Assembly: GCA_046290465.1 (NCBI GenBank) | Contig: JBKAGP010000001.1 | Span: forward strand, 4,768,001-4,832,000 | DNA: 64,000 nt | Direction: 5' to 3' | Origin: Planctomycetota bacterium | GTDB lineage: Bacteria > Planctomycetota > UBA1135 > UBA2386 | Shown here: positions 7,217 through 22,187 of the stretch, piece after piece | Layout: each line of letters starts with the position of its first letter | Numbering within the stretch: position 1 is the stretch's first letter | Made by a program: the position numbers and the translations under genes | The notes under the pieces: generated by a model | Databases searched by the model: none | What the model saw: the letters and a program-made list of their open reading frames with translations, nothing else | What the model was told of the DNA's origin: nothing

Positions 7217-7300
7217 GGGATCCCCGAGGCAGCGACCGGCTGCTGGACGCGTTACCGGGGAATCGCATTTCCGTCCCGGGCCCTGGGTAGGCTGTGCCGC

Positions 7301-8968
7301 ATGCGACGCCTCCTCGCTCGTCCCTCGGCCCTTGCCACCGCGATCTGGGCCATCTCGAACCTCGTTCCGGCGAACGCCCAGCAGCCCGGCTTCGCGCGCG
7401 TGTTCGACGACCACATGGTGCTGCAGCGGGGCGAGCCGTGTGCCGTCTGGGGATGGGGCACGGCCGGCGAGCAGGCGGTGGTGCGCTTCGGCGGGCAGGA
7501 GCACACCGCCACGGTCGACAGCGACGGTCGCTGGGCGGTGCGCCTCGATCCGCTGGCGGCCAGCGCAAAGGGGCGTGCGCTGACGCTGGCGCTGGGCGGC
7601 GCCCGGTTCGCGCTGCAGGACGTCGTGGTCGGCGAGGTCTGGGTCTGCGGCGGCCAGAGCAACATGGCCTGGACGCTGCGCAGCAGCCGCGACGCCGACC
7701 TCGAGCTGGCCTGCGCCGACGACCCGCTGCTGCGCTACGTTCGCCTGCCGCTCGAAGCGCGCGGCGAGCCGCGACGCGACTACGTGCGGCCGGAGCACGG
7801 CGGCCAGGGCAAGGGCTGGCGGGCGATCGACGCCGATGCCGCCAGGGACTGCACCGCGGTCGGCTACTACTTCGCGCAGCGGCTGCGCCGCCACCTGAAG
7901 GTCCCGGTCGGCCTCGTCGACGTGTCGTGGGGCGGCACGCTGGCGCAGTTCTGGGTGTCCAAGCCGCGGCTGCGCACGTTCGCGTCGGTGCAGCCGGAGT
8001 TCGAACGCTACCAGCGCGAGCTCGCCGCGTGGATCGAGGGCGGGCGCGAGCAGGGGGCCATCGGTCGCTACCAGGCCGCGCTCGCCGAGTGGGAACGCGC
8101 CTGCGCCACCGCGCGCGAAGCCGGCGAGCGCGAGCCGCGCAAGCCGGGCACCGGCGCCTTCGAGAACCCGGCGCACAAGCGCCATCCCGGCGGCGGCTAC
8201 GACGGCATGCTGGCGCCGCTGCGCGGGCTGTCGATCCGCGGCGCGCTCTACTTCCAGGGCGAGAACAACGCGTTCGGCGACATGTACCTGCCGTTCCCCG
8301 ACACGTATCCGGCGGTGATCGCCGAGTGGCGCGAGCTGTTCGGCGACGCGGCGCTGCCGATCGGCCTGATCCAGATCGGCGGCTGGAGCACGCGGCGCAC
8401 GATGACCTACGACATGAACCACCACACCAACGCGGTGCGCGAGGTGCAGTTCGACACGTGGCGGCGCACGCCGCACACCGGGCTGGTGGTGACGTTCGAC
8501 CTCAACTCCGACGCCAACATCCACCCCGGCCACAAGCGGCCGGTCGGCGAACGCGCGGCGCGCTGGGCGCTCGCGGAGGTCTACGCGCAGAAGGGCCACG
8601 ACGGCAAGCCGCTCCGGTGGCGTGGTCCGATCTACGCGTCGAGCGAGGTGAAGGGCGACCGCATCGTCGTGCGCTTCGAGGAGGGCACCGCCAACGGCCT
8701 GCGCCTCGACAAGTCGCAGGCGCTCGGCTTCTACCTCGCCGGCGAGGACCGCGAGTTCCACGTCGCCGATGCCCGGGTCGTCGACGGCTCGACGGTCGAG
8801 GTGTTCTGCGCGGCCGTGCCGGCGCCGATCGCGGTCCGCTACGCGTGGTCCAACCTGCCGCTCGGCACGCTGATGAACGGCAAGGAGTTGCCGGCCTACC
8901 CGTTCCGCAGCGACGACTGGCCGCTCCGGCCGCACCGGTCGGAGGGCAGCTACGTGCGACGCCGGTAG
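7301..8968 (+). CDS. Sialate O-acetylesterase family protein, secreted
   Basis: FDDHMVLQRG, VGEVWVCGGQSNM, YFQGENN, IHPGHKRPVGER, VRYAW. Confidence 0.9.
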   Translation: MRRLLARPSALATAIWAISNLVPANAQQPGFARVFDDHMVLQRGEPCAVWGWGTAGEQAVVRFGGQEHTATVDSDGRWAVRLDPLAASAKGRALTLALGGARFALQDVVVGEVWVCGGQSNMAWTLRSSRDADLELACADDPLLRYVRLPLEARGEPRRDYVRPEHGGQGKGWRAIDADAARDCTAVGYYFAQRLRRHLKVPVGLVDVSWGGTLAQFWVSKPRLRTFASVQPEFERYQRELAAWIEGGREQGAIGRYQAALAEWERACATAREAGEREPRKPGTGAFENPAHKRHPGGGYDGMLAPLRGLSIRGALYFQGENNAFGDMYLPFPDTYPAVIAEWRELFGDAALPIGLIQIGGWSTRRTMTYDMNHHTNAVREVQFDTWRRTPHTGLVVTFDLNSDANIHPGHKRPVGERAARWALAEVYAQKGHDGKPLRWRGPIYASSEVKGDRIVVRFEEGTANGLRLDKSQALGFYLAGEDREFHVADARVVDGSTVEVFCAAVPAPIAVRYAWSNLPLGTLMNGKELPAYPFRSDDWPLRPHRSEGSYVRRR

Positions 8969-9025
8969 CCCCGCGAACGCCCTCCGCCCCTGTTCAACCC
9001 GCCTGGACTGCGGTATCCCGTACGC

Positions 9026-10096
9026 ATGAAGCGGGTCTGCATCGTGTCGGGTCTGTGCCTGCTCGCCGCGGCGCTACCGTCGCAGCGACGGGGGGGCGAG
9101 CACTTCGAACTGACGCCGGCGCGGTTGGCGCAGCGGTTGACGCGCAAGCTCGAACTGCCGGACGCCTGTGGTGCTGCGTGGTGCGGGCTGCTCGAGATCG
9201 GACCGCCGGCCGTCCGGCCGCTGGTCGCGGCCACCTCGGATCCGCGCGAGGACGTCGCGATCCGCGCGATCTGGGTGCTCGGTCTGTTGCGCGAGGATGG
9301 CGACGCGGCGTTGCCGCACCTTCGCAAGCTCGCGGCGGGCGACGATGCGCCGCGCAAGGTCGCCGCGGAATGGGCGATCGACCGGATCGCGTTCCGCGGT
9401 CGCCTGCTGGCCGACTACTCCGACAACTCGGTCGTGCACCTGGGCGCCGACGGCGAGCAGGTTCGCAAGATCAAGGGGCTGAAGGGGGCGTGGCACGCCG
9501 AGCCGATCGGCGGTGGGCGGCTGCTCGTCAGCGAATACACCGGTGGCCGGGTCGTCGAGATCGACGCCGACGACAAGGAGGTCTGGAAGTTCGAGGACGT
9601 CGAGAACCCGTACGGCGCGCAGCGGCTGCCCAACGGCAACACGCTGGTCGCCGACGCCGGCAACCAGCGCGTCGTCGAGGTGTCGCGCGCCGGCAAGGTC
9701 GTCTGGGAGAAGACCAAGCTGAAGCGGCCGGTCTGGGTGCGGCGGCTGCCGGACGGCACGGTGCTGATCGCCGAGCAGAACGGCGACGCGCTCGAGTTCG
9801 GACCCGACGGCAAGCTGGTGCGCCGGATCACCAAGCTGGAATCGCCGATGTGCATCGAGCGGCTGTCGGACGGTGGCCTGCTGGTCACGGCGCACCGCGC
9901 CGGCAAGCTGTTCGAGTACGGCAAGGATGGCGCCGAGCCGCGCGTCGCGCGCGACTTCGTGCAGGCGCAGACCGCGCGGCGGCGCCGCGACGGGCACACG
10001 TTGATCGCGAGCACCACGCAGTGGATCGAGCTCGACGCCGACGGCAAGGAGGTCTGGCGGCGCAAGGGTTCGTACGCGGTCGGGGTGTTCTGGTAG
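9026..10096 (+). CDS. Secreted HEAT-repeat plus beta-propeller protein
   Basis: Signal peptide; short HEAT unit; repeated AQRLPNGNTLVAD...RVVEV...GKVVW blades. Confidence 0.75.
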   Translation: MKRVCIVSGLCLLAAALPSQRRGGEHFELTPARLAQRLTRKLELPDACGAAWCGLLEIGPPAVRPLVAATSDPREDVAIRAIWVLGLLREDGDAALPHLRKLAAGDDAPRKVAAEWAIDRIAFRGRLLADYSDNSVVHLGADGEQVRKIKGLKGAWHAEPIGGGRLLVSEYTGGRVVEIDADDKEVWKFEDVENPYGAQRLPNGNTLVADAGNQRVVEVSRAGKVVWEKTKLKRPVWVRRLPDGTVLIAEQNGDALEFGPDGKLVRRITKLESPMCIERLSDGGLLVTAHRAGKLFEYGKDGAEPRVARDFVQAQTARRRRDGHTLIASTTQWIELDADGKEVWRRKGSYAVGVFW

Positions 10097-10103
10097 GTCG
10101 TCG

Positions 10104-10916
10104 ATGAAGCGGATCTTCGAAGTCGACGGTGCGGCGATCGCCTGCGCCGAGGAAGGCGACGGCGACGCGTTCGTGCTGGTGCACGGCGCTGGCGCCAACC
10201 GCAACTACTGGCGGGCGCTGGCGACGCAGCTGGTCGCGCGCGGCCGCCGGGCGCTCGCGCCGGATCTGTATGGTCACGGCGAGACGGCTCCGTGGCCGCG
10301 TGCGGCAGAGCGGCCGTATTCGTACCTCGACGACGTCGCCGTGCTCGAACGGCTGACCGCGGAGTTGCCGGAGCCGTTCGTGCTGGTCGGCCATTCGAGC
10401 GGCGGCGCCGTCTCGCTCGAGTTCGCGGCGCGCCATCCGGAGCGCGTGCGCAAGCTGGTGGTCCTCGAGCCGATGCTGCCGACGGTGCTCGACGGTGTCG
10501 ACGACGCGGCGTTCGCCGAGGTTGCCGGGGCGTATCGGCAGGCACACGACGCCGTCGCTGCCGGCGACGACGAGCGGGCGGCGCGGCTGCTGTTCGAGTA
10601 CATCCTGGGCAGCGACGAGTGGCAGCGGCTGCCGTCGGCGACGCGCGCGTGGATGGTGGCGCACGCCGACTGCACCCTGTGCGCGCACAGCCGTGCGTCG
10701 CTGGCGCTGCGGCCGGAGGGGTCGCGCTACGAACGGATCCGCTGTCCGGTGCTGCTGCTGCACGGCGAGCACACGCGGGCTCCGTACCGTCGCATCTGCG
10801 AAGTCGTGGCCCGACGGTTGCCCGACGTGCGGGCGACGGCGATCGTCGGCGCGGCGCACAACGGACCGCTGACGCACACGCGGGAGTTTCACCGCTTGTT
10901 GTTCTCCTTCTGTTGA
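10104..10916 (+). CDS. Alpha/beta hydrolase
   Basis: LVHG, APDLYGHG, GHSSGG nucleophile elbow, C-terminal His (GAAHN). Confidence 0.88.
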   Translation: MKRIFEVDGAAIACAEEGDGDAFVLVHGAGANRNYWRALATQLVARGRRALAPDLYGHGETAPWPRAAERPYSYLDDVAVLERLTAELPEPFVLVGHSSGGAVSLEFAARHPERVRKLVVLEPMLPTVLDGVDDAAFAEVAGAYRQAHDAVAAGDDERAARLLFEYILGSDEWQRLPSATRAWMVAHADCTLCAHSRASLALRPEGSRYERIRCPVLLLHGEHTRAPYRRICEVVARRLPDVRATAIVGAAHNGPLTHTREFHRLLFSFC

Positions 10917-10929
10917 CAACGGGTTGTCA
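10914..10929. promoter_or_regulatory. Operator-like palindrome upstream of the lipid cluster
   Basis: TGACAAC-GG-GTTGTCA perfect inverted repeat, AT-rich relative to background. Confidence 0.45.
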
Positions 10930-11086
10930 CGGCGCGCGCGCCGACCGTTTTCCGTCGCTGCCGCCGTCGGAGACTCGTCGGTCGCGCCCTCTGCGGATCC
11001 GTCTCGGCGCATGGACATGGGGACAGGTCGCGACAACTGGCGGTTCGACAGGGAGGTACGCTAGTTGCTCTCCCGGACGTCTCGCC

Positions 11087-12880
11087 ATGGGAAGCAGGAA
11101 CCCCACAGAGCCGCGGCTCCGCCCCGCGACCGCTGACTCGATCGTGCATCGCCTGCGCCGACATGCCGTTGCGCGTGGCGGCGCGACGGCGTTCCGCCTG
11201 CTGCACGGCGCGTCCGGCGCGTTGTCGCAGCTGAGCTTCGGCCAGCTCGACCGGCTGGTCGACGCGGCCGCGGCCTGGTTGCGGTTCGAGCAGGGCGAAC
11301 GCGTGACGGGCCAACGGGTCGTGCTGCTGTTCGAGCCGGGGCTCGAGTTCGTGGTCGCGTTGCTGGCGTGCATGCGGGCCGGCTGCGTGGCCGTGCCGCT
11401 GCGGCCGCCGCGCACCGACGTCGAACATGCGGCGCTGCAGGGCATCGTGCGCAAGGTCGACGCGCGGCTGCTGCTGGTCGACGCGGCGACGCGCGTGCGC
11501 GGCGTGCATCGCGGTGTCTGCGACGAGGCCGGCTGCAGGCTGCGCGTGCTCGACTGGCTGCAGGATGCGAGCGCGGTCGCGACGATCCTGGCCTGCTGCG
11601 ACGCCGAGGATGCCGACGGCTCCGACGACGCGTTCCTGCAGTTCACGTCGGGCTCGACCGGCGACCCCAAGGGTGTGGTGGTCCGGCACGACCACATCCT
11701 CGCCAACCAGCAGGTGATCGAAGCGGCGTTCGGGCACGACCAGCGCACGACCACGGTCAGCTGGCTGCCGCACTTCCACGACATGGGGCTGATCGGCACG
11801 ATCCTGCAGCCGCTCTACCTCGGCCGCCCGTGCCACCTGATGGCGCCCGCGACGTTCTTGCAGCGGCCGCTGCGCTGGCTGCGCGCGATCGCCGACGCCG
11901 GCTGCGTGACCAGCGGCGGGCCCAACTTCGCGTTCCAGCACTGCGTCACGTCGATCACCGATCGCGAACTCGAGAACGGACCGCCGCTCGATCTGAGCGG
12001 ATGGCGGCTCGCGTTCGTCGGCGCCGAGCCGGTGCGCGCCGAGACGATGCGTCGGTTCGTCGAGCGGTTCGCGCGGTTCGGCTTCGACGCCGGCGCGCTC
12101 TACCCGTGCTACGGCCTGGCCGAGAGCACGCTGATGGTCACCGGCGGCGACGCAGGGCACGGGGTGCGCGCCCGTCTGCTCGATCGCGCGGTGCTCGACC
12201 AGGGGCGCGTGCAGCCGGCCGAACCTGGCGAAGGCTCGGTCGAAGTCGTGTCGTGCGGCCGCGTGCGCGGGGGGCAGCAGGTGGTCGTCGTCGACCCCGA
12301 TCGGCGCATCGCGCTGCCGGACGGTGAGGTCGGGGAGCTGTGGGTGCGAGGGCCGAGCGTCGCCGCCGGCTACTACCAAGACGAGGTGGCGACGCGCGAG
12401 CGCTTCGCGGCGACGCTGCGTGACGACGATCCGGCGCGCTACCTGCGCACCGGCGACCTCGGCTTCGTGCAGGACGGCGAGCTGTTCGTCACCGGCCGGC
12501 TCGGCTCGCGCATCATCCTCAACGGCCGCAAGTTCTACCCGCAGGACGTCGAGGCCGGCATCGCCGCGCTGCACCCGAGCTTCCGTGCCGGCGGCACGGC
12601 GGCGTTCGCGGTGGCGACCGAGACCGGCGCCAACCTGGTCATCGTGCAGGAGGTGCGCGGCCGTCAGGCCCGCGACCTCGATGCCAAGGCCGTGCTGCGC
12701 GCGGCGCGCGCCCAGATCAGTTCGCGGTTCGGCGTGCGGCTGCACGACCTCGTGCTGACCCGCGACTCCCTGCTCCGAACCAGCAGCGGCAAGTTGCGCC
12801 ACGCGCACAACCGACAGTGCTACCTTGGCGGGGGTTTCCGCCGCGTCGCCACCTCGCCTCCACGCGTCGAACATGCCTGA
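11087..12880 (+). CDS. Fatty acyl-AMP ligase (FAAL)
   Basis: FLQFTSGSTGDPKGV, SWLPHFHDMGLIG, GGPNFAF, YPCYGLAESTL, LRTGDLGF, RTSSGK; start at ATG 11087. Confidence 0.92.
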   Translation: MGSRNPTEPRLRPATADSIVHRLRRHAVARGGATAFRLLHGASGALSQLSFGQLDRLVDAAAAWLRFEQGERVTGQRVVLLFEPGLEFVVALLACMRAGCVAVPLRPPRTDVEHAALQGIVRKVDARLLLVDAATRVRGVHRGVCDEAGCRLRVLDWLQDASAVATILACCDAEDADGSDDAFLQFTSGSTGDPKGVVVRHDHILANQQVIEAAFGHDQRTTTVSWLPHFHDMGLIGTILQPLYLGRPCHLMAPATFLQRPLRWLRAIADAGCVTSGGPNFAFQHCVTSITDRELENGPPLDLSGWRLAFVGAEPVRAETMRRFVERFARFGFDAGALYPCYGLAESTLMVTGGDAGHGVRARLLDRAVLDQGRVQPAEPGEGSVEVVSCGRVRGGQQVVVVDPDRRIALPDGEVGELWVRGPSVAAGYYQDEVATRERFAATLRDDDPARYLRTGDLGFVQDGELFVTGRLGSRIILNGRKFYPQDVEAGIAALHPSFRAGGTAAFAVATETGANLVIVQEVRGRQARDLDAKAVLRAARAQISSRFGVRLHDLVLTRDSLLRTSSGKLRHAHNRQCYLGGGFRRVATSPPRVEHA

Positions 12881-13937
12881 GACCGTGTCCGATTCCATCG
12901 ACCGCCCCGTCGCCGGGCGCGGCGTCGACCGCCTGCTCGCCGCGGTCGTGACCTTCGTGCCGCCGCTCGGCGCGATCCTCGCGATCGTGCTGTGGACGCA
13001 GGGACTCGCGCCCGGCTGGGTCGAGATCGGCTCGATGCTGCTGATGCACGCGATCGCGCTGGTCGGCGTCGAGGTCGGCTTCCACCGCTTATTCGCGCAC
13101 CGGTCGTTCGAACCGCATCGCTACGTCAAGGTCGCGCTGGCAATGATGGGGTCGACCGCGTTCCAGGGACCGGTGATCTGGTGGGCGTCGATCCACCGCA
13201 AGCACCACCAGTACTCGGACCAGCCGGGCGACCCGCACTCGATGTACCTCGGTGGCCCCGGTCTGCTGGCGCGGCTGAAGGGCGCGGTGCACTCGCACAT
13301 CGGTTGGATCTGGCGCGCCGAGAGCGTCGGCCGCGGCGGCTTCCAGCGCTACGCCAAGGACCTGTATCGCGACGCCGACGTGCTCGCGATCCACATGCAC
13401 TACCTGCGCTACCTGGTGCTCGGCATGCTGATCCCGGCCGGCATCGGCGCGATCGCCTACGGCACCCTGCAAGGTGCGGCGCTCGGCTTCCTGTGGGGTG
13501 GTCTGGTGCGCGTGTTCGTGATGAACCACCTGACCTACTGGTGCATCAACTCGGTCACCCACGCGCTGGGCCGCCGGCCGTACCCGACCCGGGACCGCAG
13601 CACCAACTTCGCGTTGCTGAGCATCCCGACGCTCGGCCAGAGCTGGCACAACAACCACCACGCGGACCAGACCTCGGCGTTCATGAACCACCGTTGGTGG
13701 CAACTGGATCTCGGCGGCCTGTTGATCGGCGCGCTCGAGCGCGTCGGCCTGGTCCGCAACGCGCGGCGCCCCAACCGCGAGCGCCTGGCGGCTCTCGTCG
13801 GTGCACCGCACGCCGACCCCGACGAGACGTCCATCGACGGTTCGGCCCACCCCGGATCCGCGGTCGAGCCGACCGACCCGATCGCCTCGTTGCCGGGAGC
13901 AACGAGCGACCCCCGACTTCGCAAGCAAGCACGATGA
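12873..13937 (+). CDS. Membrane fatty-acyl desaturase, delta-9/JamB-like
   Basis: Three His boxes HRLFAH, HRKHH, WHNNHH; HSHIGW, FLWGGLVR, CINSVTH; overlaps the FAAL stop. Confidence 0.9.
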   Translation: MPETVSDSIDRPVAGRGVDRLLAAVVTFVPPLGAILAIVLWTQGLAPGWVEIGSMLLMHAIALVGVEVGFHRLFAHRSFEPHRYVKVALAMMGSTAFQGPVIWWASIHRKHHQYSDQPGDPHSMYLGGPGLLARLKGAVHSHIGWIWRAESVGRGGFQRYAKDLYRDADVLAIHMHYLRYLVLGMLIPAGIGAIAYGTLQGAALGFLWGGLVRVFVMNHLTYWCINSVTHALGRRPYPTRDRSTNFALLSIPTLGQSWHNNHHADQTSAFMNHRWWQLDLGGLLIGALERVGLVRNARRPNRERLAALVGAPHADPDETSIDGSAHPGSAVEPTDPIASLPGATSDPRLRKQAR

Positions 13938-14218
13938 ACCCCAACGACAACCAGAAGGACCAGACGCCGCTGCAGCAGTGGCTGATCGGCGAGGTGGCCC
14001 GCCGGCTCGAGGTCGGCCCCGAACAGATCGACGCCGACGCCGAGTTCGACGAGTTCGGCCTCGACTCGGTGCAGGCCGTCGCGCTGAGCGGCGCGCTCTC
14101 CGATCGCGTCGGCGAGGAGCTGCCGGCGACGCTGCTCTACGAGCACCAGAGCATCCGCGCGCTCGCCAGCCACCTGGCCGCGCAGTACCCGCACGCGTGC
14201 GGCGTGGAGCAGAACTGA
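13934..14218 (+). CDS. Acyl carrier protein
   Basis: 94-aa acidic protein with FGLDSV phosphopantetheine site; ATGA overlap with the desaturase. Confidence 0.92.
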   Translation: MNPNDNQKDQTPLQQWLIGEVARRLEVGPEQIDADAEFDEFGLDSVQAVALSGALSDRVGEELPATLLYEHQSIRALASHLAAQYPHACGVEQN

Positions 14219-15150
14219 TGGCTGCGCAGACTGATCCGCTGGGCGATCCGCAGGCTACCGGTGGCGCGCAGGCGCAGCCCGGCGCGACCGCGCGCGCCAT
14301 CCAGCAGCACTACGACCTGAGCAACGACTTCTACGCGCTCTGGCTCGATCCGGGCATGGTCTACTCCGGCGCCAAATGGGCCGAGGGCGACGACCTCGAG
14401 CGCGCGCAGGTGCGCAAGCTCGACCACCACGTGCGCGAGTCGGGGGCGCGCGGCAAGCGCCGTGTGCTCGACATCGGCTGTGGCTGGGGCACGATGCTCG
14501 AACACCTGACCGAGCGCAACGACGTGCAGCAGGCCGTCGGCCTGACGCTCAGCCAGGCGCAGCACGACTACATCGCGACCCGCCGGCTGTCGCGCGCCGA
14601 GGCGCGCGTCGAGAGTTGGGCCGACCACCAGCCGGACGAACCGTACGACGCGATCATCTCGATCGGCGCGTTCGAGCACTTCGCGCGGCTCGACATGGAC
14701 GAGCAGCAGAAGGTGCAGGCCTACGCCGCGTTCTTCCGCAAGTGCTGGCACCTGCTCGGGCGCGACGGGCGGATGAGCCTGCAGACGTTCGCCTACGGCT
14801 CCGGCCGGCCTCGCCAGCAGGCGATCGACGACCCGTCGACGCGCTTCCTGGCGGCCGAGATCTTCCAGGAGACCGACCCGCCGACGCTCGCCAACATCGC
14901 CGACGCCGCGGTCGGCACGTTCGAGGTGGTCGCGCTCGAGAACGACCGCACCGGCTACGCGCGCACCTGCAAGGAGTGGTCGGAGCGGCTGCGCAAGACC
15001 CGCGAGCAGGCGATCGCGATCGTCGGCGAGGAGGCCTACGAGCGCTACCAGCGCTACCTCAACTACGCGTTCGTCGGCTTCCACACCGGCAACCTCGACC
15101 TCTACCGGATCACGCTGCAGCGCACCCGTCGCCTGCGCGCCGAGGGATGA
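14218..15150 (+). CDS. CFA/mycolic-acid-synthase family SAM methyltransferase
   Basis: HYDLSNDFY, LDIGCGWG, GLTLS, SIGAFEHF, EEAYERY; short form lacking the N-terminal domain of E. coli Cfa; TGATG overlap with the ACP. Confidence 0.9.
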   Translation: MAAQTDPLGDPQATGGAQAQPGATARAIQQHYDLSNDFYALWLDPGMVYSGAKWAEGDDLERAQVRKLDHHVRESGARGKRRVLDIGCGWGTMLEHLTERNDVQQAVGLTLSQAQHDYIATRRLSRAEARVESWADHQPDEPYDAIISIGAFEHFARLDMDEQQKVQAYAAFFRKCWHLLGRDGRMSLQTFAYGSGRPRQQAIDDPSTRFLAAEIFQETDPPTLANIADAAVGTFEVVALENDRTGYARTCKEWSERLRKTREQAIAIVGEEAYERYQRYLNYAFVGFHTGNLDLYRITLQRTRRLRAEG

Positions 15151-16016
15151 TGGAACCGTCGTCCGGAGCGGAGGCGGCGGCGTTGCCGGAGCAGGTCGTC
15201 GGCGCCTACACGCAGCGCTACCCGCTGCGGCACGACGAGCTCGGCGCGGGCGGCTACTTCCTGCCAGCACCGCTGGTCGGCGTGCTGCAGGAGGCCGCCG
15301 TCGACGGTTCCGCATCGCGCGGCTTCCCGCTGCCGTACTACCACCGCGAACGGGCGTTCTGGATGCTGCGGCGGATCTCGTTCTGCTACCGGCGACCGCT
15401 GCGTCACGACGACCAGCTGATGGTGACGACGTGGGTCTCGCGGGTCGGCAAGACCAGCCCGACGCGCGAATACCGGATGCAGACCGCCAGCGGCGAGCCG
15501 ATCGCCAGGGTGCGCACGTTCTGGGTCTACGTCGACGTGACGACCGGCCGTTCGAAGGACATCCCCGACGACCTGCGCGCCGGCTTCGCGCCGACCGACG
15601 AGCCGCTCGAGCAGGTGCTCGACGTCCCCGGCGGTTCGCTCGACCCGGCCGCGCCGACGATCGAACGGACCTGCGACGCGAGCTGGAGCGATGTCGACTG
15701 GTCCGGCCACGTCAAGTGCTGCAGCTACGTGCGCTGGCTCGAGGACCTGCTCACCGACACGTTCGTGCGTGCGGGCGAACGTCCGGGGGTGACCGGCCTG
15801 ACCAGCTTCGACCTGCAGTTCCTGGCCGCGACCAAGGCGGGCGACCGGCTGTCGCTGCGCGCGCAGGCGGGAGCGGCGTGGAAGGCCGAACTCGCGACCG
15901 ACCAGGGACAGGTCGTCGCGCTCGCGACGCTGTGGCCGATGCAGGTGGACCGCCGCCTGACGACGTTCGCGCCGGTCGCGGCCGAACGGCTCGCGCAGAT
16001 CCGCGCCGCGACCTAG
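15147..16016 (+). CDS. Acyl-ACP thioesterase (double hotdog fold)
   Basis: LQEAA...W...RPL...VTTW...TFWVYVD; SDVDWSGHV...YVRWLED. Confidence 0.8.
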   Translation: MMEPSSGAEAAALPEQVVGAYTQRYPLRHDELGAGGYFLPAPLVGVLQEAAVDGSASRGFPLPYYHRERAFWMLRRISFCYRRPLRHDDQLMVTTWVSRVGKTSPTREYRMQTASGEPIARVRTFWVYVDVTTGRSKDIPDDLRAGFAPTDEPLEQVLDVPGGSLDPAAPTIERTCDASWSDVDWSGHVKCCSYVRWLEDLLTDTFVRAGERPGVTGLTSFDLQFLAATKAGDRLSLRAQAGAAWKAELATDQGQVVALATLWPMQVDRRLTTFAPVAAERLAQIRAAT

Positions 16017-16051
16017 ACCGACGACTCCAACAAGATCGAGACCGAGACCGC

Positions 16052-17053
16052 ATGCTTGCCCAGGGATACTGCATCCGCCTGTCGACCGACGACGACTGCG
16101 AGGCCATCTGCGAGCTGATGCGTCGCGCCTTCGACTACGGCGACGGCTCCAACGAGTCGCTCAACGCCGGCTGGTGGAACTGGAAGTACCGCGCCAACCC
16201 ACGCGGTCGCTACAGCATCGTCTGCGAAGGTCCCGAGGGCCGGCTGCTCGGCCACTACGGCGGCGTGCCGTCGCGGGTGTGGGTCGAGGGGCGACCGGTG
16301 ACCTTCGGCCAGAACTGCGATTCGTGCTCCGACCCCGAGGTGCGGCGCGGGCTGCGCAACCCGGGGCTGTTCGTGCGCCTGGCGCAGGCCTACGCGTCGA
16401 GCTTCTCCGGCCTCGAGGACAACTCGACGATGTACGGGCTGCCGATCCGCTCCGCGCACCGCATCGGGTCGAAGTACCTCGACTACTGGCTGGCGCGCAG
16501 CCAGCTCGGGTTCGTGCTCTCGGACACCAGCCGGCTGCCGGCGCGCGACGAACAGCTCGAGGTGCAGCCGATCGACGCGTTGCCCGACGACCTCGACGCG
16601 TTCCTGACGGCCAACCGCGAGCACCATCGCTGCCGCTCCGAACGTTCCGCCGAGTTCTACCAGTGGCGGTTCGTCAGCAACCCGCTGACGCGCTACCAGC
16701 TGGCGGTGCTGCGCGACCGCACCGGTGCGCTGCGCGGCGCCGCCGTCTACCGCAGCGCGCACTTCATGGGTCGCGACCTCGGCCTGCTGGTCGACCTGGT
16801 CGCCGCGCCCGACGACGACGCGGCGGCGGTCGAACTGGTGCGCTGGTCGACCGACCGCGCCGCGGCCGAGGGGCAGCAGGGCGTGTTCTTTCTGGCGGCG
16901 CCACCGTGGCCGTGGTTCGCGGCGATGCAGCAGTGGGGCTTTCGCGCCGAGACCACCGACTACGTGCTGGCCGCCCGGACCTACGCGAGCGTCGAGCCGG
17001 CGTTCCTGCGCGACCACTGGGTCTACACGCTGGCCGACTTCGACATCCTCTGA
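16052..17053 (+). CDS. GNAT-family acyltransferase (tandem GNAT)
   Basis: WWNWKYRANP, LLGHYG, DPEVRRG...GLF, YGLP, YQWRFVSNP...Y, C-terminal ADFD. Confidence 0.75.
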   Translation: MLAQGYCIRLSTDDDCEAICELMRRAFDYGDGSNESLNAGWWNWKYRANPRGRYSIVCEGPEGRLLGHYGGVPSRVWVEGRPVTFGQNCDSCSDPEVRRGLRNPGLFVRLAQAYASSFSGLEDNSTMYGLPIRSAHRIGSKYLDYWLARSQLGFVLSDTSRLPARDEQLEVQPIDALPDDLDAFLTANREHHRCRSERSAEFYQWRFVSNPLTRYQLAVLRDRTGALRGAAVYRSAHFMGRDLGLLVDLVAAPDDDAAAVELVRWSTDRAAAEGQQGVFFLAAPPWPWFAAMQQWGFRAETTDYVLAARTYASVEPAFLRDHWVYTLADFDIL

Positions 17054-17065
17054 TCCCGACACGCC

Positions 17066-18088
17066 ATGTATCGCCTACGTGACTTCGAAGCGGCCGACCT
17101 GTCGACGATCGAGCGCGAGCTGCCTTCCCACGCCGAGATCGCGCGCGAGCTGCGCGGCCAGCCGGCACCGCTGCACGGTCTGATCGTGCACGACCCGCGC
17201 GACCGCGTCGTCGGGCTGCTGGTCGCCGTGCGTCACGAGCTGGTGACCAACACGCGCACGATCGGCCTCGGCATCGTGCGGTTGGCCTACATCCAGGAGC
17301 AGGCGCGGATCGGCGGCGTGCACAGCATGCTGCACGAGCTGGACACGGCGTTCGCCGAGCGCTTCGAAGGGCCGGACAAGGTGTTCCAGGCGATGATCGC
17401 GCAGTGGCACGAGCAAGACGTCTGGTGCCTGCGGCGCCTGCGCAACTACGAACCGATCGCGCAGAGCCTGTCGTTCGTCGGGCGCGTGCGCGGCATCGAG
17501 GCGCCCGCCGACGTCGCGGTGCGCGAGCTGACCGCGGCAGATCTGGACGCCGACGGCGGCATCACCTTCGACGCAGGTCCCGACATGGGCATGCGGCGAA
17601 CGGCCGCGATGCTGCGCGCCGCGGCGGCGCGCGACGGTCGCCGCGCCTGGGTCCTGCAGCGCGGCCGGGCGGTGCTGGGCTGGGCGGCGCGGCGGCTCGA
17701 CGGCGCCGAGGCGGTGGTCGAGGCGCACTGGATCCCGTGGTACGACGCACCGCTGGCGGCGGCGTTGGTCGCGCCGATGATGGCCGACGCCGAGGCGCTG
17801 CGGGTCACGCGTTGGACGTCGGACCCCAACGAGTTCGCGGGCATGCAGGACGTCGGCCTGTGCGTGTCGGGGCCCGAGCGCGTCGTCAGCGCGCGGGTCA
17901 GCGCGTTCGGCATGGCGCCGCCGAGCCTGGCCGACTTCGCCAGCCTCGGGGTCGCCGACGTCGGCGACGAACCGCTGCCGCAGCTGTCCTACAACGAACG
18001 CATCACCACGCCGCCGCCGCCGGGCACGCCGAGCACGCGCGGCGACCACCGCCGCAGCACCGGCACCTGCAAGTTCGAATCCCGATGA
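17066..18088 (+). CDS. Divergent GNAT-like protein
   Basis: Same length and layout as the upstream GNAT (YRLRDFE, VVGLL, RRTAAML); motifs weak. Confidence 0.5.
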   Translation: MYRLRDFEAADLSTIERELPSHAEIARELRGQPAPLHGLIVHDPRDRVVGLLVAVRHELVTNTRTIGLGIVRLAYIQEQARIGGVHSMLHELDTAFAERFEGPDKVFQAMIAQWHEQDVWCLRRLRNYEPIAQSLSFVGRVRGIEAPADVAVRELTAADLDADGGITFDAGPDMGMRRTAAMLRAAAARDGRRAWVLQRGRAVLGWAARRLDGAEAVVEAHWIPWYDAPLAAALVAPMMADAEALRVTRWTSDPNEFAGMQDVGLCVSGPERVVSARVSAFGMAPPSLADFASLGVADVGDEPLPQLSYNERITTPPPPGTPSTRGDHRRSTGTCKFESR

Positions 18089-18618
18089 GCCAGCCAACCG
18101 AACCGAACCCAGCAGCACCGGATCCAGCAGAACCGGAGGATGGCGAGGAGCAGCGCCGGCGCGAGGTCGCCGCGCGCATGATCGTCACGCTCGACGGGCT
18201 GTGGTTCCGCAGCGTGCTCGAGGCGCTCGGGCCCGAGAAGACGCTGGCGATGGACATCCAGGTGTTCCAGCGCCAGTTCAAGATCGCGACGCGGGTGATC
18301 CGCGAGCGGTTCGGCCTCGATGGTGAGAGCCGCGCCGACAAGGCCAGGGTGTTCGAGGAGATGGCGCGCCTCTACGGCCACCGCTTCGAGGTGTTCGACG
18401 ACGGCGGTTCGGTCACGATGCGCCTGCACCGCTGCGGCTTCCTGCAGGCGCTGCGCGCGGCCGGCGTGACCGACCACGACTGCCGTGTCGTCTGCCGCGC
18501 GCTGCAGCCGGCCTGGTTCGGCGAGATGGAGCCGCGCACCAACGGCAAGGGCGAGCTTCGGCTCGGGTTGCCGGACGACTCGGGGCCGTGCGACTGGTCG
18601 ATCGAGCAGCCCGAGTAG
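18085..18618 (+). CDS. DUF6125 / V4R-like Cys-containing small protein
   Basis: TLDGLWF motif, four Cys (CGF, DCRVVC, PCDW); ATGA overlap. Confidence 0.65.
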   Translation: MSQPTEPNPAAPDPAEPEDGEEQRRREVAARMIVTLDGLWFRSVLEALGPEKTLAMDIQVFQRQFKIATRVIRERFGLDGESRADKARVFEEMARLYGHRFEVFDDGGSVTMRLHRCGFLQALRAAGVTDHDCRVVCRALQPAWFGEMEPRTNGKGELRLGLPDDSGPCDWSIEQPE

Positions 18619-18783
18619 TCGCTGGTCTTGTCGGGTGTGGGGGAGGGGCCGCCCGCTGCGCCGCGCTCCGTCCGCCCGGCGCGAGTCGACCGCGCGCGAA
18701 GGATCCGCGCGAAGGTCGACGGGGGCGAATCGACGGGGGGCGGTCGCGGCCCGTGCGGCCGCGACGTCGCTCGCGAAGATGGC

Positions 18784-19221
18784 CTACTTGGCCTTCTTCT
18801 TGAACGTCATCGTCATTTCCTTGCCGCCCTGCTTCTCGACGAGCGTCAGCGTACCGTCCTTGTAGGTCAGCGTGCGCGCATCGTCCTTGCCGTCTTCCTT
18901 CGCGACGATGGTCATCTTGTCGCCCTCGAGCTTCCAGGTGCCGGTCGTCTTGTCTTCCGTGGGTTCGCCGCCCGCCGGGTTCGGCATCATCATCGACATC
19001 TCGGCCGAGCCGTCGGCCTTGAGGGTCATCGTGCCCTTCATGCCTTCGGCCATCTTCTTGATCATCGGCTTCGCCGCTTCCGGCGCGCCTTCCAGCATCT
19101 GGGCTTCCATGGCCTTGGCGTCGAGCTCGTAGACACCGGTGCCGGCGGGCTCGCCCGCGCCACAGCTGGCGAGCATGGTCAGGGCGAGGGCAGTCAGAAT
19201 CGTCGTCAGGATCTTCTTCAT
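18784..19221 (-). CDS. Lipoprotein, small beta-barrel (lipocalin-like)
   Basis: MKKILT...MLASC lipobox; GTWKLEGDK. Confidence 0.8.
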   Translation of the reverse strand: MKKILTTILTALALTMLASCGAGEPAGTGVYELDAKAMEAQMLEGAPEAAKPMIKKMAEGMKGTMTLKADGSAEMSMMMPNPAGGEPTEDKTTGTWKLEGDKMTIVAKEDGKDDARTLTYKDGTLTLVEKQGGKEMTMTFKKKAK

Positions 19222-19358
19222 GCCGGAGAGCATGGCGAGGCGGCATGCCGCTCGCCACGAACGATCTGTCGGGTTCGGAAGAAACTCGATGAGGATTGCC
19301 GGTTTCGGCCTGCCGCGGGCCCGGGGGGGACGTTTCCGGCACAATGAACGGGCGCCCA

Positions 19359-19408
19359 ATCCCCAGCTCGTCGAACCCCAGCTCTGTGATCCCCAGCTTG
19401 TGATCCCC
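19359..19408. repeat. Imperfect ~15-bp tandem repeat between divergent genes
   Basis: A(T/A)CCCCAGCT...G three times plus a partial ATCCCC. Confidence 0.7.
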
Positions 19409-19424
19409 TGGGCGCCGCCCCCCC

Positions 19425-20360
19425 ATGCTGATCCTCGCCGCCGTCCTGTCCTCGTTCGCCACCGCCGTCGTCCCGCAGGACCCGACGCCATCCCGGCCGT
19501 CGCCAGCCACCGAGCTCCCGCGGCAACGCCGCCAACCGGAGGTCTACAAGCAGGTCGGCGACGTCGAGCTGCGCATCGAACTGGTCGCGCCCGACGGGCA
19601 CACCAGCAAGGACCGTCGCCCGGCGATCGTGTTCTTCTTCGGCGGCGGCTGGAACGGCGGCACGACCGAGCAGTTCCGGCCGCAGGCCGCCTACCTGGCC
19701 TCGCGCGGCATGGTCGCCGCGCTCGCCGACTATCGCGTCCGGTCGCGCCACGGGACGACGCCGTTCGCGTGCGTCGCCGACGGCAAGAGCGCGGTGCGCT
19801 GGCTGCGCACCAACGCCGCCCGGCTCGGCATCGACCCGGGCCGGATCGCGGCCGGCGGGGGTTCGGCCGGCGGGCACGTCGCCGCCGCGACCGGCGTGCT
19901 CGCCGGACTCGACGAGCCGTCGGAGGACCGCGCGGTCTCGTCGGTGCCCGACGCCCTGGTGCTGTTCAATCCGGTCTTCGACAACGGCCCGGACGGCTAC
20001 GGCCACGCGCGGGTCAAGCCGCGGTGGCGGCAGATCTCGCCGTTGCACAACCTCCGCAAGGGGGCGCCGCCGACCATCGTGTTCCTCGGCAGCAAGGACA
20101 AGCTGATCCCGGTCGCCACCGCGCGCGCCTACCGGAGCCGCATGCAGCAGGTCGGGAGCCGCTGCGACCTGCACGTCTACGACGGCCAGCCGCACGGCTT
20201 CTTCAGCCGGGCGCGCAGCGCGCGCTGCTACGCGTTGACCGTGCGCGAGATGGACCGCTTCCTGGCCTCGCTCGGATGGCTCGATGGCGAGCCGACCATC
20301 GAGGTGCCTGACATCGAGGTGCCCGACATCGAGGTGCCGAGGCCGCGCGGCAAGCGCTGA
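19425..20360 (+). CDS. Secreted alpha/beta hydrolase (esterase, BD-FAE-like)
   Basis: FFGGGW, DYRV, GGSAGG, GQPHGFF; C-terminal 15-bp repeat (IEVPD x3) at 20297-20338. Confidence 0.88.
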   Translation: MLILAAVLSSFATAVVPQDPTPSRPSPATELPRQRRQPEVYKQVGDVELRIELVAPDGHTSKDRRPAIVFFFGGGWNGGTTEQFRPQAAYLASRGMVAALADYRVRSRHGTTPFACVADGKSAVRWLRTNAARLGIDPGRIAAGGGSAGGHVAAATGVLAGLDEPSEDRAVSSVPDALVLFNPVFDNGPDGYGHARVKPRWRQISPLHNLRKGAPPTIVFLGSKDKLIPVATARAYRSRMQQVGSRCDLHVYDGQPHGFFSRARSARCYALTVREMDRFLASLGWLDGEPTIEVPDIEVPDIEVPRPRGKR

Positions 20361-20366
20361 CGCCGG

Positions 20367-22187
20367 CTACCGGAGCCGCACGTCCTGCGCGGGACCGCCG
20401 ACGCGTGCGTCCCTGCTGACGATCTCGGTCGGTGCGTCGACCCCCGCTTTGACCAAGAACGTGCGGCCCTTCGGCGCGCCAGGAGCAAAGGTCCGGCCGC
20501 GGATGCGCACGGTGTAGAGCACCTCATCGGTGTTGGCGTCGAGGACCTGCACGACCGGGTCGTCGACGTCGAAGCGCAGCTCGCCGAGCTGGCCCCACGA
20601 CGGCGGCGCGTAGTTGTCGAACTGCGAGATCGTGCGCGGCCAGCCGACGTACTGCCTGGCTGCCGGGTCGGTGACGTCGACGTTGCGCGGCCAGCACTCC
20701 ATCGTGATCTCGCGCGTCGCGGTGTCGAGCCTCACGATGCCGAACCCGGCTGCGCGCGTGTTGAGCACGTTGCCGGCGGGCTTCTTCTCGGGATTGGCGG
20801 CGGCGAAGTTGGTGACCTTGTTGGCGAAGCCGTCGAGGTGGTCGCCCGTGTATGCGGGTGCCCCCGGTTCGCGGTTGGCGCCTGACTCGAGCGGTTCCCA
20901 CCAGCGCAGGTAGAGGTTGGCGATCGACGGCACGCAGAACGACCAGATCGCGTCGCGGTGCTCGTCGATCCCGTGCTGGAAGATCGTCGCCAGGTGCTGG
21001 TCGCCGCCGCAGTGGAACGCGAACGCCTTGCGCAGCGCGGCGACGGCGCGGTTGCGGCCGGACTGCGGCCAGCCGTTGGAGTCCATGTCCGCGTGCAGGC
21101 GGCCGTTGGCGGTGCCGTGGATGTGGGCGCCGCCGCAGAAGATCGTCGCCGACAGCGCGACCTTCATCTTTGCGTGCCGCCAGTCCTGCGCCCAGCGATC
21201 GAGGAACGCGAGCTGCCGTTCGCCGAGCAGCACCGCGCCGTCGATGTCGACGCTGGCCGGGTCGTACTCGGGGTTGCGGATGTGGTCGGGTCGCGGCCCT
21301 TGCTTTGGGACCTTGCCGGCCGGGCCGGTCTTGAACTTGCGGTCCTCGAGGATCGCGAAGTCGACGTTGCCCCAGTTGAGGTTGGTGAACCAGACGCCGA
21401 TGCCCTGGCCGATCGTGTGCGGGTCGACCGGGTCGGGGAAGTGGCTGGTCTGCGCGCGCTCGACCTCCTGCACGTAGACGCCGGGGCGCTTGTAGCCGCC
21501 GTCGGCGGCGCCGCCGAGCAGCGCGACCTTGCCGCTCTCGCCCCACAGGTTGGGCTGGCCGGCGTCGTGGTCGTCGGGCAGGCACAGCGTCGGCCGGTCC
21601 TTGATGATCTCGCCGAACGCGCGGCCGAACGCGAGCCAGGCCGCGAGGTGGCGATGGTGGTCGTAGACCTGGTCCCCGGAGAAGAACAGCAGATCCGCGT
21701 CGACCTTCTTGACGTTGTCGATCAGGTCCTGGCGCGAGCGATCGCCGCCGTGCGCCGGGCGGATCGAGTTGCCGGTGAAGCATGCGACGACGACCTCGGC
21801 TTCGTCCTTCGGGTTCTTGCGCACGATGCCCTCGTAGGTCGCCTCGGTGCCGTGCGCGACGCGGTAGCGGCAGGCGCGGCCGTCGTCCCAGCCGTCGACC
21901 CGGAACGGCGCGGTGAAGCCCGGCTCGATCACCTGGGTCTTGGCGACCTCGACCCAGCCGCCGTCGCGTTCGACCTCGAGCCGGACGGTGCGCGGGGCCG
22001 TGTCCGCGAGCGGATACAGTTGGGCGGTCAGCTTGAGCGTGCCGTCGTGCACGGTGTAGAGCGCGAAGCAGATCGCGTCCTTGGCCGCGACCTCGGGGAT
22101 GCTCAGGTCGACGCGGCGCTGCGCGCGGGCGCCACCGGCGACGAGGAGGCCGACGGCCGCGATGGCCAGGGCTTGCGTGCGGATCAT
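20367..22187 (-). CDS. PhoD-like metallophosphoesterase, secreted
   Basis: FSGDQVY, PDDHD, EDRKFK, DSNGWPQSGR, GDQH; signal peptide from ATG 22187. Confidence 0.82.
   Translation of the reverse strand: MIRTQALAIAAVGLLVAGGARAQRRVDLSIPEVAAKDAICFALYTVHDGTLKLTAQLYPLADTAPRTVRLEVERDGGWVEVAKTQVIEPGFTAPFRVDGWDDGRACRYRVAHGTEATYEGIVRKNPKDEAEVVVACFTGNSIRPAHGGDRSRQDLIDNVKKVDADLLFFSGDQVYDHHRHLAAWLAFGRAFGEIIKDRPTLCLPDDHDAGQPNLWGESGKVALLGGAADGGYKRPGVYVQEVERAQTSHFPDPVDPHTIGQGIGVWFTNLNWGNVDFAILEDRKFKTGPAGKVPKQGPRPDHIRNPEYDPASVDIDGAVLLGERQLAFLDRWAQDWRHAKMKVALSATIFCGGAHIHGTANGRLHADMDSNGWPQSGRNRAVAALRKAFAFHCGGDQHLATIFQHGIDEHRDAIWSFCVPSIANLYLRWWEPLESGANREPGAPAYTGDHLDGFANKVTNFAAANPEKKPAGNVLNTRAAGFGIVRLDTATREITMECWPRNVDVTDPAARQYVGWPRTISQFDNYAPPSWGQLGELRFDVDDPVVQVLDANTDEVLYTVRIRGRTFAPGAPKGRTFLVKAGVDAPTEIVSRDARVGGPAQDVRLR

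Follow-up and report, generated by a model that had tools for sequence, protein, structure and literature searches.

A nine-gene, PKS-free cluster in a planctomycetotal genome joins a widespread FAAL-desaturase-ACP-CMAS module to a GNAT pair

The window analysed here is a stretch of 64,000 nucleotides from a Planctomycetota bacterium (contig JBKAGP010000001.1 of assembly GCA_046290465.1), and all positions refer to it. Eight of its ORFs follow each other in one direction, with five overlapping junctions (8, 4, 1, 4 and 4 nt) and two gaps (35 and 12 nt), as a preliminary description of this DNA had reported, and their GC3 lies between 0.91 and 0.97. While these eight genes are real, that description overlooked an alpha/beta hydrolase gene upstream; the cluster has nine genes and begins with this hydrolase (Table 1). 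An in-frame TTG at 10913 was considered as the start of the fatty acyl-AMP ligase (FAAL) and rejected, since the FAAL of relatives begins at the position corresponding to 11087. Positions 7000–21000 are covered without a break by a contig from another public run, with 174 mismatches, and the two insertions listed within cluster genes (15 and 12 nt) are both in frame. A promoter and terminator scan of positions 7000–19500 returned 0 sites, and one RNA run yielded short contigs both on and off the cluster, which has no bearing on transcription. Profile searches gave matches to AMP-binding/FAAL, FA_desaturase, PP-binding, CMAS, acyl-ACP thioesterase and DUF6125, plus a weak Acetyltransf_9 match. 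The claim that the cluster is PKS-free holds: no PKS was found in it, no KS lies in the window, and the one type I KS of the genome is 1.6 Mb away.

Table 1 Genes of the cluster, with the evidence on which each assignment is based.
Feature	Position	Strand	Basis
Alpha/beta hydrolase, 270 aa	10104..10916	+	Pfam Abhydrolase_1, E 5e-24
Fatty acyl-AMP ligase (FAAL), 597 aa	11087..12880	+	NCBIfam FAAL models, solved relatives
Membrane diiron desaturase, 354 aa	12873..13937	+	Pfam FA_desaturase, trees
Stand-alone ACP, 94 aa	13934..14218	+	Pfam PP-binding, E 2e-17
CMAS/CFAS-family SAM methyltransferase, 310 aa	14218..15150	+	Pfam CMAS, E 4e-58
Double hot-dog acyl-ACP thioesterase homologue, 289 aa	15147..16016	+	Pfam; alignment to 4gak, 5x04
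GNAT1, 333 aa, tandem GNAT	16052..17053	+	Structure model, fold match, family C-terminus
GNAT2, 340 aa, degenerate GNAT1 paralogue	17066..18088	+	hhalign, modelled fold
DUF6125 / ATC_hydrolase-like protein, 177 aa	18085..18618	+	Profile match, position after GNAT2

The gene order is shared with relatives, as the preliminary description had anticipated, and is kept in 3 of the 90 other genomes of the family (G011, G024 and G106), which represent three genera and in which the cluster flanks differ. In G106 the series hydrolase-FAAL-desaturase-ACP-CMAS-thioesterase-GNAT1-GNAT2 lies on a single contig, and in G011 and G024 the order from hydrolase to GNAT2 is kept across contig breaks; dN is smaller than dS in 21 of 21 pairwise comparisons. 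The hydrolase adjoins the 5' side of FAAL in all three relatives (at 52–56%), and in G024 and G106 the end of its reading frame overlaps the beginning of FAAL. Its GxSxG serine (Ser98) and His252 are intact, with the motifs kept in 4/4; it is a candidate release enzyme. The DUF6125 gene directly follows GNAT2 in the window genome and in a further genome, G066, and comes after three inserted genes in G106. G066 (82% complete) carries thioesterase, GNAT1, GNAT2 and DUF6125 at 52–68%, and no FAAL, CMAS or close desaturase was found in it; because the back half of the cluster can thus stand without the front half, we infer their coupling rather than observe it. Divergently upstream of the G066 genes is an unrelated desaturase-like gene.

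A dedicated FAAL/ACP loading route, one of the earlier proposals, is supported. The best NCBIfam matches of the ligase are FAAL models, every one of them under its cut-off, its best solved relatives are FAAL-type chains (7r7f, E 3e-126; 3pbk, E 6e-72), and it is the sole FAAL-level match in the genome; the attachment residue of the ACP is Ser45. Moreover, the FAAL-desaturase-ACP-CMAS series has a published precedent. In the fischerazole cluster, FshA, FshD, FshE and FshF are a FAAL, a desaturase, a free ACP and a CMAS-type enzyme in the identical order. Fatty acid activation and ACP loading by FshA/FshE were shown in vitro, as was methylation of ACP-tethered cis-hexadecenoate by FshF to vinyl-branched and cyclopropane products, the vinyl branch being ascribed to a 1,2-alkyl shift; the authors were unable to show that FshD makes the alkene, and the main text gives no residue rule for the vinyl vs. 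cyclopropane outcome (PMC13548996). Compared with L277, a stand-in for fsh chosen by its published gene order only, the window proteins have identities of 38% (FAAL), 44% (desaturase), 44% (ACP) and 42% (methyltransferase). The two systems differ in what follows: fsh has CylC-type and Fe/aKG halogenases, PKS, NRPS and P450, none of which occurs among the nine window genes or their flanks, whereas the window cluster has the hydrolase, the hot-dog thioesterase, the GNAT pair and DUF6125. The statement that this combination is not a characterised pathway therefore stands for the back half only, the front four genes being those of fshA/D/E/F (PMC13548996). Besides the fischerazole paper and one review, our literature search turned up no publication on these genes as a set.

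The same four genes recur widely. The desaturase-ACP-methyltransferase module is present in 35 of 301 genomes of one cyanobacterial family, on 19 plasmids and on many metagenome contigs, and the full set of four is common across phyla. Cyanobacterial loci chosen by their CMAS alone carried FAAL, desaturase and ACP in 20 of 20 cases, as did all four plasmid loci opened (of the 19 found). The best desaturase matches pair with the best CMAS matches by length of the longest contig in 43 of 120 cases, compared with 0/120 for a control list. Distances among the desaturases rise with those among the CMAS enzymes (Spearman 0.62, the highest value in 2000 shuffles being 0.21; 42 pairs, with kin not independent). 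A CMAS homologue at 44% in another genome (G971) has no desaturase, FAAL or ACP within 20 kb. In many taxa the front half occurs with a P450, a hydrolase, a PaaI thioesterase, FabH or PKS and without GNAT; in one genome (G234) it is followed by a FabH-like gene. Among 33 listed CMAS loci of at least 8 kb, GNAT1 is present only in the 2 from family relatives. The front of the cluster is thus found widely and follows a published precedent; what is new is the back half.

That the cluster encodes a methyltransferase adding a SAM-derived carbon, as proposed earlier, agrees with our analysis, which assigns it to the form without an N-terminal lipid-binding domain (in the alignment its residue 29 falls opposite residue 118 of 6bqc). 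Among solved structures, mycolic acid methyltransferases come closest to it. It belongs to the fold family of CmaA1, CmaA2, MmaA2 and the E. coli CFA synthase (E 1e-39; PMC11387697, PMC9821293), is short like the mycolic enzymes and keeps the Glu and Tyr bicarbonate ligands (here E153 and Y247). In contrast to CFAS/CMAS, the His ligand is a Gln (Q189), a Cys is replaced by G51, and the enzyme sits in a clade apart from CFA-like enzymes. This clade (49 rows, SH-aLRT 100) includes the fsh-order enzyme, which has the same E/Q/Y residues, and within it the window enzyme forms a well-supported subclade of its own. The Gln is present in 118 of 118 best CMAS matches, and other active-site changes are near-fixed among them (G51 in 88/118, F191 in 116/118). 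Cotton CPS enzymes also carry Gln in place of the His ligand (PMC3132707), so Q189 is compatible with cyclopropane formation.

The desaturase, with His boxes at 71, 108 and 259, is 40% identical to a pgn-order polyyne desaturase. Trees were built with FastTree on 119 rows and with IQ-TREE on 48 hand-picked rows of 255. The enzyme falls in a 34-row FAAL/ACP-linked clade together with pgn-order polyyne enzymes (support 92/98) and not among stand-alone desaturases, a point on which the preliminary description is supported. Within this clade it forms, like the methyltransferase in its own tree, a well-supported subclade apart from the fsh-order enzyme, and also apart from the polyyne desaturases; the branching order among the ACP-linked subclades is unresolved. 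The six sequence motifs previously quoted as JamB-type are indeed present, but 28 of 167 stand-alone desaturases (no FAAL, ACP or CMAS nearby) contain all six as well, compared with 0/4 polyyne desaturases. Because they are this generic, they do not mark the enzyme as specifically JamB-like. No protein named JamB or TtuB was present among 120 homologues of the fsh-order desaturase or in a cluster look-up of 10 of these; among the matches listed in scans of genome and metagenome contigs with generic desaturase patterns, most were 35–45% relatives, which serve as background only.

At the start of the back half, the thioesterase homologue keeps D184 and H188, but its N-Q-H-V-N-N stretch reads S-G-H-V-K-C in the alignment to 4gak and 5x04, and K-C is conserved in 5/5 orthologues. 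These changes fall within the D-x-N-x-H-V-N-N positions of the C-terminal, FatB-like hot-dog, which we take to be acyl-ACP thioesterases' catalytic residues. The last gene product, the DUF6125 protein, has four conserved Cys (117, 133, 137 and 169) and may have a lipid-binding role like that of V4R/Bet3 proteins.

That GNAT1 is built like NMT and Eis, and that GNAT2 is degenerate, had escaped the preliminary description. GNAT1 matches Acetyltransf_9 at 21.9 bits, below the cut-off of 25, and a single-sequence search of the PDB gave no genuine match. Its model (pLDDT 95) consists of two GNAT domains only, with Z scores of 22.4 to 2hv2, 20.7 to yeast NMT (2p6e) and 20.4 to Eis (3sxn), i.e. the tandem GNAT fold of Eis-type GNATs and eukaryotic NMT (Z 20–22), at 10–14% identity; against 2p6e the rmsd is 4.8 Å over 305 residues at 10% identity, and Eis-like rows score at least as well as NMT. 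In the model, residue 331 aligns to the last residue of Eis (402) and of NMT, so that GNAT1 ends where Eis F402 and NMT L455 lie; in these two enzymes (PMC4964394, PMC8556138) the last residue acts as the base (PMC4964394). In GNAT1, however, the conserved residue is an Asp two positions before the end, and the chain ends in DxDxx in 107 of 122 family rows. Whereas Eis has a third, C-terminal domain and ~400 aa, GNAT1 leaves no room for one; unlike Eis and NMT it is also paired with a degenerate paralogue. NMT itself takes its acyl group from a long acyl-CoA and passes it to an N-terminal glycine. From the modelled fold, GNAT1 is likely an amine acyltransferase.

GNAT2 has no Pfam or NCBIfam match but is a GNAT1 paralogue by hhalign (99.4%, E 5.5e-22), with a tandem GNAT fold, Gly300 at the position of GNAT1 Asp331, an altered CoA loop and a disordered tail of ~40 residues. 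The GNAT1-GNAT2 complex model scores 0.79, the best of 3 controls reaching 0.17. Of 157 solved complexes 116 attain that mark, but only 2 of 215 mismatched pairs do; the model runs share at least 59% of contacts, with partner pLDDT of at least 81. GNAT2 is a predicted dimer partner of GNAT1, although the score may reflect a homodimer surface of the family, as pairings with near relatives of a genuine partner pass too. Of 61 related genomes searched, 57 contain GNAT1 homologues, in most cases without the cluster, and the window genome has 3 further copies; the family thus has a job independent of the module. A related GNAT pair comes after a FabF-type ketosynthase gene in three genomes (G030, G023 and G033), where a methyltransferase gene and a B12 radical-SAM gene are close by and, in G030, an AMP-binding enzyme was identified as well; the pair therefore recurs beside acyl chemistry. 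In a fourth genome (G018) the pair lies among housekeeping genes, and a PKS link considered for it was rejected, as ~10 kb of unrelated genes intervene and the like PKS of the window genome is far from its GNATs.

Two other known systems bear on the interpretation. The FAAL-desaturase-ACP order is common to the jamABC/ttuABC cassettes, which feed a PKS-NRPS line and have no methyltransferase (PMC8341276, PMC8406139); by the three-domain rule of PMC8406139, the window cluster would be called as having alkyne potential. The polyyne clusters pgn, cay and ccn likewise use PKS-free FAAL/ACP chemistry, thioesterase release and related desaturases, but their cassettes have three desaturases and a rubredoxin (PMC8406139, PMC9828172), whereas the window cluster has one desaturase, no rubredoxin, and the methyltransferase and GNATs in addition.

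Taken together, the reading we favour, tentatively and at a little under an even chance, is that the nine genes, without a PKS, build a fatty acyl chain on a dedicated ACP and give it a ring or branch carbon derived from SAM, and that GNAT1-GNAT2 moves it to an amine. The FAAL would activate a medium or long fatty acid and load it onto Ser45 of the ACP, as expected from the family and from FshA/FshE; the desaturase would introduce a mid-chain cis double bond, as its tight pairing with the methyltransferase suggests; and the alkene, still bound to the ACP, would receive the SAM carbon from the CMAS enzyme and so gain a cyclopropane or a vinyl/methyl branch, by extension from FshF at 42% identity. 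GNAT1, with GNAT2 as non-catalytic partner, would then acylate an amine with its C-terminal acid serving as the base, much as in Eis and NMT, as its fold and conservation suggest. Release or editing of the chain may fall to the serine hydrolase or to the hot-dog thioesterase with its altered motif. We regard loading, desaturation and SAM-carbon addition as probable; given these, it is roughly a coin toss whether the GNAT step acts on this chain. The product is best read as a fatty acyl amide with a cyclopropyl group or a branch, or as the free acid, made via a PKS-free route. With two genes of hydrolase type in the cluster, the chain could leave more simply as free acid, which counts against an amide.

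A less likely but serious alternative is that two modules lie side by side, with the front five genes making and releasing a free cyclopropyl or branched acid as a signal or defence compound, and thioesterase, GNAT1, GNAT2 and DUF6125 forming a separate unit with a substrate of its own or a protective function for the cell. The solitary back half in G066, the GNAT-free front halves of many taxa and the intact Ser and His of the hydrolase all favour this separation, but the CMAS and thioesterase genes overlap by 4 nt, the halves remain joined in G011, G024 and G106, the front half could have been lost from, or missed in, the incomplete G066, and the thioesterase motif is altered in 5/5.

It is improbable that the desaturase goes beyond an alkene, with an alkyne closed by the methyltransferase to a cyclopropene, or a cyclopropane oxidised to one, as proposed for plant sterculic acid. 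Its clade does include pgn-order enzymes, a type described as JamB-related (PMC9828172), both it and the methyltransferase have their own subclades, the latter with the near-fixed G51 and F191, and few residues distinguish acetylenases from desaturases according to a review (PMC8341276). However, the quoted motifs are not acetylenase markers, FshF, the sole tested enzyme of the methyltransferase clade, uses cis-alkenes, one desaturase would need to act twice, and no paper came up when the literature was searched for a cyclopropene cluster in bacteria. Alkyne formation, as first proposed, is thus unsupported, the motifs being generic and the enzyme lying in a clade of its own, and the alkyne and cyclopropene readings are possible but unsupported. 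Equally doubtful is the idea that the cluster stands in for a housekeeping desaturase and CFA synthase by supplying unsaturated and cyclopropane chains to membrane lipids: the genome contains neither another CMAS-level match nor a second OLE1-like desaturase, and 53 other family genomes carry a separate, ~35% similar desaturase, but the methyltransferase is missing the lipid-binding domain that membrane CFA synthases have at the N-terminus (PMC11387697), G011 has both desaturases and many relatives neither, the genome has 2 further FA_desaturase genes, and the cluster is patchy with differing flanks.

Returning to the acyl chain with a ring or branch carbon that is moved to an amine, the desaturase-ACP-CMAS module is common, yet we found one characterised case, and what the desaturase does was not settled there. 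A small PKS-free cluster makes it testable whether this desaturase class supplies the alkene, and how ring vs. branch is controlled. The GNAT1 family has no solved close relative, and the operon is a first lead to its acyl donor; use of an NMT-like C-terminus by a bacterial long-chain acyltransferase would surprise specialists. As a long shot, GNAT1-GNAT2 could be a bacterial counterpart of NMT, a dimer of enzyme and pseudo-enzyme that lipidates a peptide or protein amine from a dedicated ACP with a strained or branched chain (cyclopropyl, vinyl-branched, perhaps cyclopropenyl), helped by DUF6125 as a lipid-binding protein. If true, proteins would here be lipidated in a new way, with a fatty acid made for the purpose.

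We tentatively read the nine-gene cluster as a route, independent of polyketide synthases (PKS), that would make a fatty acyl amide with a cyclopropyl or branched chain. It resembles the fischerazole (fsh) pathway in its first steps and the tandem-GNAT acyltransferases Eis and N-myristoyltransferase (NMT) in its last, but belongs to neither pathway family. The eight genes placed here by the preliminary description were confirmed at the positions it gave, five junctions overlapping and the other two leaving 35 and 12 nt; their GC3 (0.91–0.97) is of coding type, and the entire stretch recurs on a single contig of another public run at ~99% identity. Pfam and NCBIfam name seven of the eight, and GNAT2, which has no family match, is a GNAT1 paralogue by profile comparison and fold. 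Because an alpha/beta hydrolase gene precedes FAAL in all three relatives with the front half (FAAL, desaturase, ACP and CMAS-type methyltransferase), its stop overlapping the FAAL start in two, the cluster comprises nine genes. The inverted repeat at the hydrolase stop was absent from five relative loci checked, and may be an operator or chance.

Features with coordinates, in the window or in the loci of other genomes
Feature	Location	Strand	Remarks
Alpha/beta hydrolase	window 10104-10916		Ser98 and His252 kept
FAAL to DUF6125, eight genes	window 11087-18618		
Inverted repeat TGACAAC-GG-GTTGTCA	window 10914-10929		perfect; directly 3' of hydrolase stop; single copy genome-wide
Repeat protein	window 4163-7216	-	1017 aa; signal-peptide-like start; many ELW/RSDGT-type repeats; outside cluster
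Transposase-like gene (by look), G011	L052:263-1645		~2 kb upstream of cluster
Extra hot-dog thioesterase, G024	L051:514-1280		usual H-V-N-N motif; between methyltransferase and K-C thioesterase
DUF6125 remnant, G009	L298:6764-6949		last 60 codons; beside genes flanking DUF6125 in G011 (L299)
Desaturase-like gene, G066	L297:3224-4147		other-type His-box membrane protein; divergent, upstream of TE-GNAT1-GNAT2-DUF6125
Tandem CMAS-type genes	L067:9394-12179		three, after one desaturase and ACP
Tandem CMAS-type genes	L280:8461-11285		three, after one desaturase and ACP

Synteny in relatives, on which the earlier proposal depended, was borne out: the gene order from hydrolase to GNAT2 is present in G106, G011 and G024, genomes of the same family. 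A single contig of G106 carries all nine genes, DUF6125 being separated from the others by an insert of three unrelated genes; in G011 and G024 the cluster is split over contig breaks, and DUF6125 was not found in G024 (69% complete). Among 90 other family genomes, a close desaturase occurs in three, the thioesterase (TE) in four, GNAT2 in four as a close and four more as a distant form, and DUF6125 in four, once as a fragment. The cluster flanks vary between genomes, and dN is below dS in 21/21 pairwise comparisons. The remnant in G009, a member of the same genus as G011, looks like a cluster deletion.

The back half (TE-GNAT1-GNAT2-DUF6125) is the new part of the cluster. The preliminary description had called the whole combination uncharacterised, which holds for the GNAT pair but not for the front half, which has a fischerazole precedent. 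GNAT1 is modelled confidently as a tandem GNAT fold, its best structural matches being Eis-like proteins and NMTs (Z 20–22, 10–14% identity). In the structural alignment its residue 331 coincides with the chain ends of Eis (402) and yeast NMT (455), residues proposed as catalytic base (PMC4964394, PMC8556138). The family C-terminus has a fixed register, D-x-D-x-x in 107/122 rows and, with Asp or Glu, in 115/122, and D331 is nearly invariant. From this fold, register and conserved chain end we infer that GNAT1 would acylate amines, with an acid at its C-terminus serving as base. In GNAT2 the D331 position is Gly, the CoA loop is altered and a tail of ~40 residues is disordered, suggesting a non-catalytic partner. 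The GNAT1-GNAT2 complex model scored 0.79 versus 0.17 for the best control (the mark for such scores was reached by 116/157 solved complexes and 2/215 mismatched pairs), with at least 59% of contacts in common between runs and partner pLDDT of at least 81; as GNAT1 and GNAT2 are paralogous, a dimer surface common to the family may be all that the score reflects. In more distant genomes of the order (loci L010, L012, L014, L015, L019), tandem GNAT pairs keep the D-x-D-x-x end in both copies. GNAT1 homologues are fused to glycosyltransferases in three of the 11 scanned proteins (one below the cut-off). Proteins P0292, P0333, P0377 and P0321 join GNAT1-family domains to family 2 glycosyltransferases and an Asp/Asn beta-hydroxylase-like domain; amino sugars or envelope lipids may be acyl acceptors of the family. 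The thioesterase keeps Asp and His, with N-N replaced by K-C in 5/5 orthologues; the additional H-V-N-N enzyme beside it in G024 hints that the K-C protein might be something other than an ordinary thioesterase. Four cysteines are conserved in DUF6125, which in one Atlas cluster occurs as a fusion with a methyltransferase.

The strongest alternative, which we consider less likely than the acyl amide route, is that the cluster yields a free acid and the back half works independently. In its favour, TE-GNAT1-GNAT2-DUF6125 is present in G066 (82% complete), where FAAL, CMAS and a close desaturase were not found; GNAT1 homologues occur in 57/61 genomes searched, and no GNAT1 match was seen at loci outside the cluster's family among the 33 listed CMAS loci of 8 kb or more. 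Coupling of the halves is favoured, on the other hand, by the CMAS/TE gene overlap, by the same joined order in three genera and by a related GNAT pair after a ketosynthase in three other genomes. The desaturase-like gene in G066 may replace the front half there. Loci L054, L055 and L056 (G030, G023, G033) hold a further uncharacterised cluster: genes for a B12 radical-SAM protein, a methyltransferase, an AMP-binding enzyme (recognised in G030), a FabF-type ketosynthase and a GNAT1-GNAT2 pair.

The front half of the proposed acyl amide route is a known, common module. A literature search for clusters that combine a FAAL, a desaturase and a cyclopropane synthase yielded one paper, on the fischerazoles (PMC13548996): FshA loads C12–C16 acids on the ACP FshE, FshF attaches a SAM-derived carbon to cis-hexadecenoate on the ACP to give a vinyl-branched and a cyclopropane product, and whether FshD makes the alkene its authors could not tell. 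The methyltransferase occurs in 35/301 genomes of one cyanobacterial family, its opened loci holding FAAL, desaturase and ACP in 20/20 and a ketosynthase match in 9/20; one of the cyanobacterial loci, L277, has the published fsh order and serves as our stand-in for fsh. Nineteen plasmid records match, and all four opened carry desaturase-ACP-methyltransferase and FAAL, continuing with PKS or with P450 and hydrolase. PKS-free forms are thus not rare. Of the best desaturase matches, 43/120 lie on contigs equal in length to that of a methyltransferase match, versus 0/120 in the control, a pairing confirmed in Pendulispora brunnea by consecutive accession numbers. Distances of the two enzymes correlate (42 pairs, kin not being independent), although the sole methyltransferase match in 401 Acidobacteriota genomes stands alone. 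In 400 other genomes sampled from the phylum, the methyltransferase turned up in G234 alone, where it accompanies FAAL, desaturase and ACP and a FabH-like gene comes next. A PKS-free cassette, desaturase-ACP-CMAS-P450-(hydrolase)-FAAL-(PaaI thioesterase), recurs in Actinomycetota, Alphaproteobacteria and cyanobacteria (L232, L233, L093, L278, L279, L282); a literature search did not find it described. Loci L067 and L280, together with L266, L267 and L283 (three desaturases and one CMAS), are candidates for poly-cyclopropane or polyene chains.

The analysis does not establish the cluster as a jamABC cassette. As anticipated, the desaturase falls among FAAL/ACP-linked enzymes (34 rows, 92/98; same picture on 119 rows), away from stand-alone ones, but within them it forms its own clade (100/100), its branching relative to pgn-order polyyne and fsh-order enzymes being unresolved. 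The motifs previously cited as JamB-type, loosened slightly before counting, were all present in 28/167 desaturases without FAAL, ACP or CMAS nearby, in 14/43 that have CMAS together with FAAL or ACP, and in 0/4 polyyne desaturases; they do not mark acetylenases. An alkyne is unsupported, and we regard an alkyne or cyclopropene product as improbable; the desaturase pairs with an enzyme class needing a cis-alkene, so that its product is likely an alkene. The methyltransferase is a short form without lipid-binding domain (compare PMC11387697), which would fit an ACP-bound substrate. It falls with the fsh-order enzyme in a clade of 49 rows, separate from CFA-like proteins, and there belongs to a distinct subclade of 24 rows (66/77 rows after near-duplicate removal). 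We give membrane supply as the cluster's role little chance. Of the bicarbonate ligands that PMC9821293 names for CmaA1, Glu and Tyr are conserved; Gln takes the place of His, as in 118/118 best matches and 38/38 subfamily loci. Cotton cyclopropane synthases share this change (PMC3132707), and therefore ring and branch cannot be told apart from sequence. With the nine-gene cluster, the question whether FshD is an alkene maker becomes easy to test.
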